Positions 28,855 through 62,340 of a DNA stretch of 64,000 nucleotides are shown in pieces. This stretch comes from a virus (Duplodnaviria; Caudoviricetes): the IMG/VR virus record IMGVR_UViG_3300046171_000271; one strand, 5' to 3'. The number at the start of each line of letters is the position of its first letter. The stretch's first letter is position 1. The notes beneath the pieces are model-generated. The model was not told the DNA's origin. It ran no database searches and was given only the letters and a program-made list of their open reading frames with translations. The translations under genes were made by a program, and so were the position numbers.

Positions 28855-28872
28855 AACGTTAAGTTCTGTAAA
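28855..28872 (-). promoter_or_regulatory. HLR1-like repeat in the psbA leader
   Basis: minus strand TTTACAGA-AC-TTAACGTT, 13/16 to HLR1 consensus. Confidence 0.4.
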
Positions 28873-28880
28873 GTTGTATT

Positions 28881-28977
28881 ACTCTCTGCAAACCGAGGCC
28901 TCTAGGGAGTATAAAAACGCCTCTAATACCTATCTCTGAGGGTGAGATAGGAATATTTACTTCAGTGTCCCTGCACT
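28881..28977 (+). ncRNA. structured psbA 5' leader, PhotoRC-II-like
   Basis: ACTCTCTG/TAGGGAGT stem with GAGGC/GCCTC crossing it (H-type pseudoknot), then hairpin CCTATCTC/GAGATAGG; a cyanophage psbA leader motif is known, identity not verified. Confidence 0.6.
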
Positions 28978-36135: not shown

Positions 36136-36162
36136 CAAATGTTCATGTTGATACCAACACAT

Positions 36163-36191
36163 TTGACTAAATAGAATTGAAAGTGTATCCT
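36163..36191 (+). promoter_or_regulatory. sigma70-type promoter with overlapping CTAAATA, directly upstream of the tandem RNA elements
   Basis: TTGACT 36163-68, 17 nt, TATCCT 36186-91; CTAAATA 36167-73. Confidence 0.6.
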
Positions 36192-36199
36192 ACACTTGT

Positions 36200-36448
36200 C
36201 GTTCATCTCATGCTCAGTATCCTTACTGGCATTGACCCTTGCCTCATCATAATGACGCGTCACTCCTTACGGGTGGCACATGTCTTGTGAAAGGTTCTCT
36301 ACAGACGATCGAGTTGAAATTCCAATGCAGATCCCAATCTCGAGCGCTTCGGTCTAAGTATGAATCTGATAGGTTACCTTAGAGTCGAAAGTTGACGGGC
36401 GAATGTGAAGGGAGCATTCACATGAGACGCAAGTAAGTCGCGGAACGG
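36200..36448 (+). ncRNA. glutamine-II (Downstream-peptide)-like riboswitch fold A with an approximately 208-nt P2 loop
   Basis: P1 CGTTC 36200-04/GAACG 36443-47; P2 TCTCATG 36206-12/CATGAGA 36421-27; junction CGCAAGTAAGTCGCG. Confidence 0.65.
36210..36425 (+). CDS. small protein inside the P2 loop of fold A, broken by indels as sequenced
   Basis: ATG and TGA are both in the P2 strands and in the same frame; frame 0 stops at 36288-90, but shifted pieces read MLSIL.., PYGWHMSCERF, MNLIGYL, ..GAFT. Confidence 0.5.
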
Positions 36449-36450
36449 AG

Positions 36451-36630
36451 CGTTCATCCCGTGTTTGAATTTTTACTTTACTCTGGTATTCATTGCACCG
36501 ATGCTAAGGATATGATCCGACGTATCGAAGCAAGTAACAGTGTAAGTAAAATTACTAAGGCTGAGGTTGTTGAGACCGTAAAGGAAGCAACACCTGAGTG
36601 CAAATGGGACGCAAACGACTGAAGGAACGG
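36451..36630 (+). ncRNA. glutamine-II-like riboswitch fold B with an approximately 141-nt P2 loop
   Basis: P1 CGTTC 36451-55/GAACG 36625-29; P2 TCCCGT 36457-62/ATGGGA 36604-09; junction CGCAAACGACTGAAG. Confidence 0.7.
36461..36622 (+). CDS. 53-aa protein inside fold B
   Basis: intact GTG..TGA ORF MFEFLLYSGIHCTDAKDMIRRIEASNSVSKITKAEVVETVKEATPECKWDAND; GGAG at 36447-50 upstream. Confidence 0.7.
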   Translation: MFEFLLYSGIHCTDAKDMIRRIEASNSVSKITKAEVVETVKEATPECKWDAND

Positions 36631-36663
36631 ACCTAAAAATCCAACTACTTCAGGAGAAAACCA

Positions 36664-36828
36664 ATGAACACACTTACTATCATCAAAAAGCAAATCAACA
36701 AGGCAGCAGCTCTGCATGACGCACAGATTACTCACACCGCATATCGTGGTGTAAAGTCTGAAGTTCGTAAGGTAGGACAGGAGTCTCACGGCACCTTCTG
36801 CTACCGTGGTCGTATCTATACCAAGTAA
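36664..36828 (+). CDS. DUF4278-like YRG peptide (54 aa)
   Basis: MNTLTIIKKQINKAAALHDAQITHTAYRGV...FCYRGRIYTK; SD AGGAG 36652-56. Confidence 0.75.
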   Translation: MNTLTIIKKQINKAAALHDAQITHTAYRGVKSEVRKVGQESHGTFCYRGRIYTK

Positions 36829-36834
36829 GGAACT

Positions 36835-36930
36835 ATGGAAGCACTACAGTTAACTGGGCTCTTATCCTTAGGTTGTTTTGTTGCTATATCGGTATTTTAC
36901 GGTGAACTCGTCCTTCTTTACAAACACTGA
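36835..36930 (+). CDS. 31-aa membrane peptide
   Basis: MEALQLTGLLSLGCFVAISVFYGELVLLYKH; AAGGA upstream. Confidence 0.55.
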   Translation: MEALQLTGLLSLGCFVAISVFYGELVLLYKH

Positions 36931-36941
36931 GGGAAAAACAA

Positions 36942-37100
36942 ATGCTGAAGATCAAACTTTATTATGATCTTCCAGAATATAATCCAGAAGTTCACGATCC
37001 TGATAGGGTTTTCAGACTTCTAACATATCGTGGAGTAACTTATGCTAAGTGGATTAATTTAAAATCTCTAGGCATATCAAACTGGAAAGTATTTAAATGA
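36942..37100 (+). CDS. second YRG (DUF4278-like) peptide (52 aa)
   Basis: MLKIKLYYDLPEYNPEVHDPDRVFRLLTYRGVTYAKW... Confidence 0.6.
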   Translation: MLKIKLYYDLPEYNPEVHDPDRVFRLLTYRGVTYAKWINLKSLGISNWKVFK

Positions 37101-37134
37101 GGACCTTGACGGGTCCTCTTTTTTTGTCTATAAT
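37099..37134 (+). terminator. terminator hairpin overlapping a sigma70 promoter
   Basis: GAGGACCT-TGAC-GGGTCCTC+T7; TTGACG 37106-11, 17 nt, TATAAT 37129-34. Confidence 0.85.
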
Positions 37135-61680: not shown

Positions 61681-61754
61681 GCGCGAGTAGTCCAATGGCA
61701 GGAGACACCAAACTTAAAATTTGTACAGTGCGGGTTCGAGTCCCGCCTCGCGTA
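61681..61754 (+). tRNA. trnL: tRNA-Leu(UAA) with a short variable loop, no encoded CCA
   Basis: acceptor GCGCGAG/CTCGCGT, anticodon TAA 61715-17, T-arm GCGGG-TTCGAGT-CCCGC, discriminator A. Confidence 0.85.
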
Positions 61755-62268: not shown

Positions 62269-62340
62269 GCCCCTGTAGCTCAATGGCAGAGCAACGCTTT
62301 TGTAAAGCGTAGGTTGTCCGTTCAAATCGGATCGGGGGCT
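62269..62340 (+). tRNA. trnT: tRNA-Thr(UGU), no encoded CCA
   Basis: acceptor GCCCCTG/CGGGGGC, anticodon stem ACGCT/AGCGT with TGT 62301-03, GTTCAAAT T-loop. Confidence 0.92.

Follow-up and report, generated by a model that had tools for sequence, protein, structure and literature searches.

Our analysis concerns the leader at positions 36200-36663 of a 64,000-nucleotide (nt) stretch of DNA from a T4-like cyanomyovirus (IMG/VR record IMGVR_UViG_3300046171_000271; the whole stretch is called the window below). We consider it likely that this leader is a single RNA device, an ON switch in which two nested glutamine-aptamer cores share one helix, P3, and compete with a helix directed against the Shine-Dalgarno (SD) sequence of the peptide gene downstream. 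Its most likely role is that of a translational ON switch with two predicted ligand sites and one expression platform. An initial annotation of this DNA had drawn attention to two short complementarities, both of which are read directly in the sequence: AGTCG (36436-40) with its complement CGACT (36616-20), and CTGAAG (36619-24), which holds the TGA (36620-22) that stops the open reading frame (ORF) 36461..36622, with CTTCAG (36648-53), which overlaps the AGGAG (36652-56) that lies 8 nt ahead of the ATG at 36664. Bases 36619-20 belong to both helices, which are mutually exclusive there.

Short matches of this kind are common: ~100 complementary 5-mer pairs are expected by chance in a 478-nt stretch, and with the choice limited to two ~10-nt junctions, or to one junction and a 35-nt tail, the chance of such a match is ~0.05-0.07. 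The evidence of a single sequence is therefore weak, and the test must be comparative. Three sets of loci were gathered: 80 through the downstream peptide, ~120 by the junction pattern GGAACGGAKCGTTCA, and ~90 real elements among the matches of a scan in which position 36 of the inner GGAACG had to be a base other than G and its partner could be any base. After parsing, these sets yielded 220 unique elements. The compensatory changes sought in these related phage loci were found for both pairings, and the comparison, through conservation and covariation, makes both far more than chance. The elements of the leader, and the gene that it precedes, are as follows.

36200..36204, plus strand: outer P1 5' strand CGUUC, which pairs with 36625-29
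36206-12 / 36421-27, plus strand: outer P2 stem UCUCAUG / CAUGAGA, which encloses an insert of ~208 nt (36206..36427)
36428..36435, plus strand: linker CGC, in which C36430 forms the linchpin with G36630, followed by AAGUA (5' half of loop E)
36436..36440, plus strand: P3 5' strand AGUCG, from covariation
36442..36455, plus strand: inner P1' hairpin, with G35' at 36442, GAACG 36443-47 pairing with CGUUC 36451-55, and loop GAG 36448-50
G36448 (in the GAG loop) with C36612: inner linchpin
36457-60 / 36606-09, plus strand: inner P2' UCCC / GGGA, whose closing pairs covary; it encloses most of ORF-B
36461..36622, plus strand: ORF-B, 53 amino acids (aa), GUG start, UGA stop 36620-22 in the anti-SD strand; counterpart of gp197 of phage Syn9
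36610..36615, plus strand: inner-core linker CGC and AAA
36616..36620, plus strand: P3 3' strand CGACU, from covariation
36619..36624, plus strand: anti-SD strand CUGAAG, overlapping P3, loop E and G35
36621..36623, plus strand: GAA, 3' half of loop E, in agreement with the Rfam Glutamine consensus GAAGGAACG
36624..36630, plus strand: outer G35, P1 3' strand GAACG and linchpin G36630
36629-31 / 36640-42, plus strand: small hairpin GGA / UCC, predicted in minimum-energy folds of the local region and of the full leader, with weaker support
36648..36656, plus strand: CUUCAG 36648-53, the anti-SD target, overlapping the SD AGGAG 36652-56
36664..36828, plus strand: regulated gene, encoding a 54-aa peptide with two YRG motifs

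P3 and the arrangement of the two cores

The AGUCG:CGACU pairing is a true helix. In every locus its first strand begins directly after AAGUA and its second ends directly before (G/A)AAGGAACG. We count 26 haplotypes of it, and pairs 1, 3, 5, 6 and 8 show compensatory changes (examples are AGUCA:UGACU, GGAAGG:CCUUCC, GG..:..CC at pair 1, and an eighth pair that is U:A, G:C or A:U), and among unique sequences the lengths of the two strands covary (5:5 in 160, 8:8 in 42 and 6:6 in 11); 0 of 2000 shuffles reached the observed pairing. When 24 compact elements were aligned with MAFFT, pair 1 was AU in 15, GC in 5 and GU in 3, and pair 8 was GC in 7, UA in 4 and AU in 3; the observed covariation was reached in 0 of 500 shuffles. 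Sliding the P3 partner by one column lowers pairing from 93% to 34-52%. That the complementarities arose by chance, or as by-products of coding for the C-terminus of ORF-B (WDAND*), is extremely improbable: short matches do abound in 478 nt and 36606-22 is coding, but the covariation of bases and of strand length refutes this explanation, and compact relatives free of the ORF have identical elements.

The initial annotation had taken AGUCG:CGACU for a docking contact between two aptamers. Because AGUA and GAA, the halves of loop E, flank it, this helix reads instead as the P3 stem of a glutamine-I aptamer, and it joins the two cores. The annotation's premise that class II glutamine aptamers use a junction pseudoknot (PK) was also inexact, the glutamine-II pseudoknot being CGUUC:GGAACG itself (PMC6698751). 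In a group of loci that we call class 2 (L087, L093, L184 and others), P3 has eight positions, AGCCGACN : NGCCGACU; nearly all members keep two symmetric C.A (or A.C) mismatches and the flanking pairs covary, which suggests conserved non-canonical pairs inside the shared helix. A reading of the class-2 junctions as local AG/CU mini-hairpins was rejected, since covariation of the eighth pair between the two junctions speaks for the long-range helix. A pairing of CGC 36439-41 with GCG 36450-52, considered as P2 of an upstream side-by-side fold, was set aside as too short (3 bp) and unsupported.

The arrangement of the cores follows from which copies of the P1 strands pair, CGTTCA being present at 36200 and 36451 and GGAACG at 36442 and 36624. 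With nested pairing, the inner pair 36:5 is G:C in 158 of the 220 unique relatives, C:G in 55 and A:U in 7, and at the outer pair 5:36 there are 210 G:C and 5 A:U, with zero mismatches at either. With side-by-side pairing of the same sequences, one helix acquires 61 mismatches (C.C 49, A.C 7, C.U 5) and the other 62 (G.G 50, G.U 7, A.G 5). Five sequences join an outer U:A to an inner G:C within one molecule (CGUUU...GCAACG-loop-CGUUG...GAAACG), and the inner C:G state is found on at least five P3 backgrounds. P1 varies very little, but C5:G36 is one of two PK pairs that are neither ligand-contacting nor more than 97% conserved (PMC6698751), and so is free to covary without loss of binding. The linchpins behave in the same way. 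The outer one, between nucleotide 3 of the first linker and the base after the outer GGAACG, is C:G in 196 relatives, G:C in 21 and C.A in 3; nucleotide 3 of the inner linker is always C and pairs with the inner G41' (the base after the inner GGAACG) in 220/220. Read side by side, the linchpins include 21 G.G and 21 C.C, and alignment-tool counts put linchpin pairing at 100% nested vs 62.5% in tandem. The spacer from the inner GGAACG to CGUUC never departs from 3-4 nt (examples are GAG, GAU and GUUC), in keeping with a hairpin loop. The counts for the inner P1' are valid from the anchored parse and not from MAFFT alignment A1, which misplaces three rows with a 4-nt inner loop (L220, L248, L290) and thereby produces cells scored as 'other'.

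We therefore read the two cores, from the covariation of their relatives, as nested and not side by side, with P3 shared between them. The inner unit would be a circularly permuted aptamer core within the outer P3 loop, opened in P3 and closed at P1: from 5' to 3' it runs P3 strand, C, GGAACG, loop, CGUUC-A, P2', CGC-AAA, P3 strand, which keeps the normal circular order. P3 is thus predicted to have a binding core at each end. The docking of side-by-side aptamers proposed in the initial annotation gives way to this nesting, shown by the covariation of P1 pair 5:36 and of the linchpins. It is very unlikely that A (36200..36447) and B (36451..36629) are tandem aptamers that each form a separate P1 and kiss through AGUCG:CGACU. 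They can be drawn, since both CGUUC copies and both GGAACG copies are identical in the window; Rfam aligns compact relatives locally in this way, as does the glnA.sto alignment of Weinberg 2010, and the P1 of A could form first during transcription. But 61-62 of the 220 relatives would be mismatched in each P1 (C.C, A.C, G.G, A.G) where nesting leaves none, and 21 sequences would have G.G and C.C linchpins. Each fold alone would also be left with half of loop E (AGUA only in A, GAA only in B), and the single nucleotide between P3 and the GGAACG of A would put the P1 helix at the end of P3 that is far from the linker of A.

A marine metagenome sequence in glnA.sto, JCVI_SCAF_1096627355794 (PMC2864571 supplement), reads CGUUCA-hairpin-CGAAAGUA-CGCCGACU-GAAGGAACG. 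It corresponds to the outer aptamer with only the 3' P3 strand and without the inner unit, and may be a deletion derivative of the nested form.

In the published glutamine-II structure the ligand is surrounded by CGUUC:GGAACG, the CGC linker and the linchpin pair C19:G41, and loop E is a defining feature of glnA RNA (PMC6698751). Judged by sequence, the outer unit of the leader appears to be a complete three-way junction aptamer of the glutamine-I type. Like glutamine-I (glnA RNA, RF01739), it has all consensus elements in order, namely CGUUCA, P2, CG(C/G)AAGUA, P3, GAAGGAACG and the linchpin, and the composite agrees position by position with the Glutamine consensus CGUUCA-P2-CGGAAGUA-P3-GAAGGAACG. 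P1 is formed by 36200-04 with 36625-29; P2 follows CGUUC-A, though with a large insert; CGCAAGUA at 36428-35 agrees with the Rfam J2/3 consensus CGGAAGUA; P3 lies between AGUA and GAAG; GAAG 36621-24 agrees with J3/1 (relatives have G or A at 36621); and C36430:G36630 is a long-range linchpin. The closing pairs of the outer P2 are 100% paired in compact relatives, with double changes at 4/4 pairs. The outer unit also shares with glutamine-I its loop E, its place in the 5' leader of a YRG/DUF4278-type peptide and, probably, ON action at the ribosome-binding site (RBS). Unlike in glutamine-I, P3 here is no hairpin, its loop being the whole second core, P2 has the ~208-nt insert with an ORF, and the P1 strands lie 425 nt apart; the Rfam model misses the element.

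The inner core resembles glutamine-II (Downstream-peptide motif, RF01704) in its CGUUCA, hairpin, CGC-A, GGAACGG and C:G linchpin and in having no loop E, and the genes downstream of both belong to the same peptide family. Most of the 220 relatives have CGC as the linker of this core, and a few have UGC. The core differs in being circularly permuted, with a P1/PK closed by a 3-4-nt loop and an open third helix, and that helix lies 5' of GGAACG as in glutamine-I, whereas the glutamine-II P2 encloses GGAACG. No P2 of the glutamine-II kind, with GGAACG in its loop, a 3' strand directly after G42 and an A33:G42 pair, was found at either core: the inner GGAACGG is followed by AG and then CGUUCA, and at the outer GGAACGG the complementary strand is 17 nt off and the helix would use the equivalents of A33-G35. 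The ligand-contacting positions C1, G18, C19, C39 and G40, as named in PMC6698751, are present in both cores. In compact relatives, each local fold scores 24-32 bits with Glutamine RF01739 and 23-29 bits with Glutamine-II RF01704 (E ~1e-3 to 1e-1).

The anti-SD helix and the proposed switch

The second pairing, CUGAAG:CUUCAG, is 99.5% paired across 94 distinct 3' regions, which 0 of 500 shuffles equalled. In these 94 sequences pair 36621:36651 is GC in 38, AU in 32 and GU in 24, and it is never unpaired; A.C is absent there across all unique sequences (Fisher p = 2e-17), and near-identical tails (L006 vs L034, L002 vs L025) differ solely at these two positions. The helix is present in the predicted minimum-energy folds of both the local region and the full leader. 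The small hairpin beside it is 94.7% paired, its third pair being GC in 32, GU in 29, AU in 18 and other in 14.

The anti-SD helix uses the last two bases of P3, the GAA of loop E and G35, and so cannot coexist with the nested fold; the states are also exclusive because the small hairpin takes G40 and the linchpin G. Nearest-neighbour energies give -138.7 kcal/mol for the anti-SD state vs -124.7 kcal/mol for the forced nested fold. Because these energies alone favour the anti-SD state, the aptamer state needs tertiary and ligand energy. Of the expression platform put forward in the initial annotation, the competition between pairings holds, both being conserved, covarying and exclusive at 36619-20, with one of them covering the start of the SD; what it was thought to compete with, a docking of two aptamers, is replaced by the P3 of the nested fold.

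We propose that in the absence of ligand the anti-SD helix forms, aided by the hairpin 36629-31 : 36640-42, and occludes the SD. Once glutamine binds, the bases of 36619-24 would be held by P1, the linchpin, loop E and P3, so that 36648-56 is released, the SD is freed and translation of the YRG peptide is switched ON. Both types of glutamine riboswitch are ON switches that free an RBS (PMC6212724; PMC6698751), and we infer the ON direction here by analogy; any cooperativity would presumably pass through the shared P3. The anti-SD strand lies 5' of GGAACG (P3 3' strand, loop E and G35), and in this the leader differs from the proposal for Synechocystis gifB, which uses bases 3' of P1 (PMC6212724). 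A farther-reaching reading, which in our judgement falls just short of being probable, is that T4-like cyanophages widely carry a sensor architecture that has gone unrecognised, a permuted nested aptamer that is truly cooperative and not a 'pseudo-cooperative' tandem. The shared helix would then have a ligand site at either end, both driving one expression platform. Translation of the two small genes in the sensor's hairpin loops, which ends exactly in the anti-SD strand, would unfold and reset the sensor, so that a single RNA would combine the sensing of ligand with the passage of ribosomes.

It is quite unlikely that CUGAAG:CUUCAG is instead a P2 in the style of glutamine-II, part of the bound fold, so that glutamine would hide the SD in an OFF switch and P3 with loop E would be the unbound alternative. 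A glutamine-II helix whose strands flank GGAACG does stack under the pseudoknot (PMC6698751), and the stretch of the helix with the covarying pair 36621:36651 would not clash with A33, G34 and G35. However, the 3' strand here begins 17 to >40 nt beyond GGAACGG instead of immediately following G42, the equivalents of A33, G34 and G35 would be taken up by three of the six pairs, and the conserved A33:G42 pair has no counterpart. AGUA/GAA with P3 is, moreover, exactly the glutamine-I consensus, and the glutamine riboswitches assayed to date are ON switches (PMC6212724).

Some loci (L013, L021, L035, L075 and others) have an extra hairpin of 25-35 nt between GGAACGG/P1 and the anti-SD target, for example GGAUCC-UGCGUAAGCA-G..GGUU, with GNRA or UUCG loops.

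Embedded reading frames and the regulated peptide

Phage Syn9 carries gp196, gp197 and gp198 as annotated genes in the corresponding stretch, and the first two have equivalents inside the leader. By its conservation ORF-B, the gp197 counterpart, is a real gene. In 168 of 186 unique relatives it opens with an AUG placed 9-16 nt beyond the inner CGUUC and closes with a UGA or UAA inside CU(G/A)AAGG; insert lengths are 3-periodic in 159 of the 186, and the peptides can be aligned by eye (E.LL...C...PEC..DA.D*). In the window the start, inside the P2' stem, is GUG, where these 168 relatives have AUG. The GGAG of the inner loop G-GAG, 10 nt upstream of this start, could serve as an SD; many relatives have GAU there. 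ORF-B is absent from 34 of the 220 relatives, which retain all RNA elements; the RNA structure is therefore independent of it. ORF-A, in the outer P2 insert, is the equivalent of gp196, encodes 61-68 aa and is intact in 55 of 59 relatives. It is decayed in the window (36210-36420), where it stops at 26 aa and pieces (HHND..., MSCERF...) stand in two other frames; at least two frameshifts must therefore have occurred.

A ribosome terminating at 36620-22, as the initial annotation suggested, would cover the anti-SD strand, and such coupling is plausible. That the SD is opened mainly by ribosomes translating ORF-B, with the pairings serving coupling and not sensing, is nevertheless unlikely. It would suit a real and conserved ORF-B whose stop lies inside the anti-SD strand in 168/186 relatives and is preserved, as UGA or UAA, by the G/A change at 36621, and a terminating ribosome covering 36619-24. 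But P3, the anti-SD strand and the SD target are unchanged in the 34/220 relatives without ORF-B, the ligand-contacting bases are conserved in both cores, and the start codon of ORF-B lies inside the P2' stem. Coupling and ligand sensing are in any case compatible with each other.

Several points weigh against a nested, ligand-sensing ON switch. The sequences compared are kin, and their counts are not numbers of independent events. All four P1 strands are canonical in the window, where side-by-side pairing is possible, and its nesting is deduced from relatives. No glutamine family of Rfam was found in the window at gathering level or at E <= 10, and the compact relatives also lie under the gathering scores (35 bits for RF01739, 33 for RF01704); the RF01739 threshold is likely missed because the model expects a local P3 hairpin. 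Loop E has AAA in place of the consensus GAA in one third of relatives, and we infer glutamine binding at both cores from their sequences. In the anti-SD helix, covariation is limited to one pair and Watson-Crick pairs cover only two of the five SD bases (A36652, G36653); covering the whole SD would take the extension C36616:G36656 across tandem G.A pairs, which the folding prediction contains. Translation of two ORFs between the P1 strands would unfold P2, P2' and P3. Finally, the platform is not universal: other relatives carry a different anti-SD pairing, CUCUUUA:UAAGGAG, 3' of P1.

In this last subgroup (L087, L093, L104, L122 and others) CUCUUUA stands directly 3' of GGAACG and is complementary to UAAGGAG, and the platform resembles the Synechocystis model. 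Its members always have a CGG linker and a C after GGAACG, a G:C linchpin as in glutamine-I.

The IF17-like family is associated with glutamine riboswitches (PMC6212724), and it is the family of the DUF4278 peptide that L184 encodes at the position of the regulated gene (27 bits vs a cutoff of 25.3). The 54-aa peptide of the window and a 52-aa peptide further downstream gave no Pfam match to DUF4278 (PF14105), with which they have the YRG motifs alone in common, and a Pfam search of the window's four small peptides found no match. After the 54-aa gene, 36835-37100 holds a 31-aa hydrophobic ORF and then the 52-aa ORF, which contains LTYRGVTY; neither has a Pfam match.

Relation to catalogued riboswitches and distribution

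The leader resembles the catalogued tandem glutamine doublets (Weinberg 2010; Sherlock et al. 2022, PMC9481103) in having two cores in one leader. Those doublets are described as side by side with separate platforms; here covariation indicates that the two cores interlock in one fold, share a helix and serve a single platform. The glnA.sto alignment of Weinberg 2010 (PMC2864571) holds these phage and marine sequences as side-by-side units, in which the second fold has the first in its flank and the strand of P3 stays unpaired, and Sherlock 2022 (PMC9481103) filed 157 glutamine doublets as pseudo-cooperative with multiple expression platforms. From the present comparison such 'tandem' doublets are apparently not a pair of independent switches but a single interlocked fold that has two sites and one platform, and a fold of this kind predicts real cooperativity and an altered dose-response curve. 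As in the tandem glycine riboswitch, two predicted aptamers for the same amino acid are structurally joined and served by one platform, and cooperativity is possible; the glycine aptamers follow one another and dock through tertiary contacts, whereas here a stem of one core accommodates the other, which is circularly permuted. No description of a nested or permuted glutamine aptamer was found in a literature search that did not extend to the primary paper of Ames and Breaker. For RNA sensors, a natural aptamer that lies circularly permuted within another would be a new design principle.

Positions 36150-36900 are similar to 434 Synechococcus and Prochlorococcus phage records, at identities of mostly 60-80%, and the leader type is also present in hundreds of viral contigs. 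The survey of McCown 2017 (PMC5473149), by contrast, counted just two aptamers for glutamine among phage genomes and took riboswitches to be rarely used by phages; the leader type goes unnoticed by the curated Rfam models owing to its nesting and inserts. When 185,579 species genomes were scanned, there were just 10 matches, all on contigs of metagenome-assembled genomes (MAGs) or single-amplified genomes (SAGs), several of them phage-sized, for which reason the arrangement looks phage-borne. Two matches, labelled as a Synechococcus MAG (L392) and a Prochlorococcus single-cell genome (L400), come from contigs of 194 kb and 189 kb, about as long as a cyanomyovirus genome, and are probably phage DNA binned with the host. 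The arrangement suggests that phages adjust the production of IF17-like peptides to the glutamine of the host; these peptides may act on the host's glutamine synthetase.

The leader is flanked by putative transcription signals, and the window holds other RNA features.

36163..36191, plus strand: promoter-like site TTGACT-17 nt-TATCCT, with the consensus match as sole evidence
37099..37118, plus strand: hairpin like an intrinsic terminator, closing the small operon
28869-28964: PhotoRC-II RNA (Rfam scan, 67 bits)
61681-61754 and 62269-62340: two tRNA genes (Rfam scan)

Given the promoter-like site and the terminator-like hairpin, the leader and the three or four tiny genes after it look like one short transcript. 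The promoter-like site ends 8 nt upstream of the outer P1, the first conserved RNA element, and TTGACT...TATAAT stands at the equivalent place in relatives (Syn9, L101, L146, L190).

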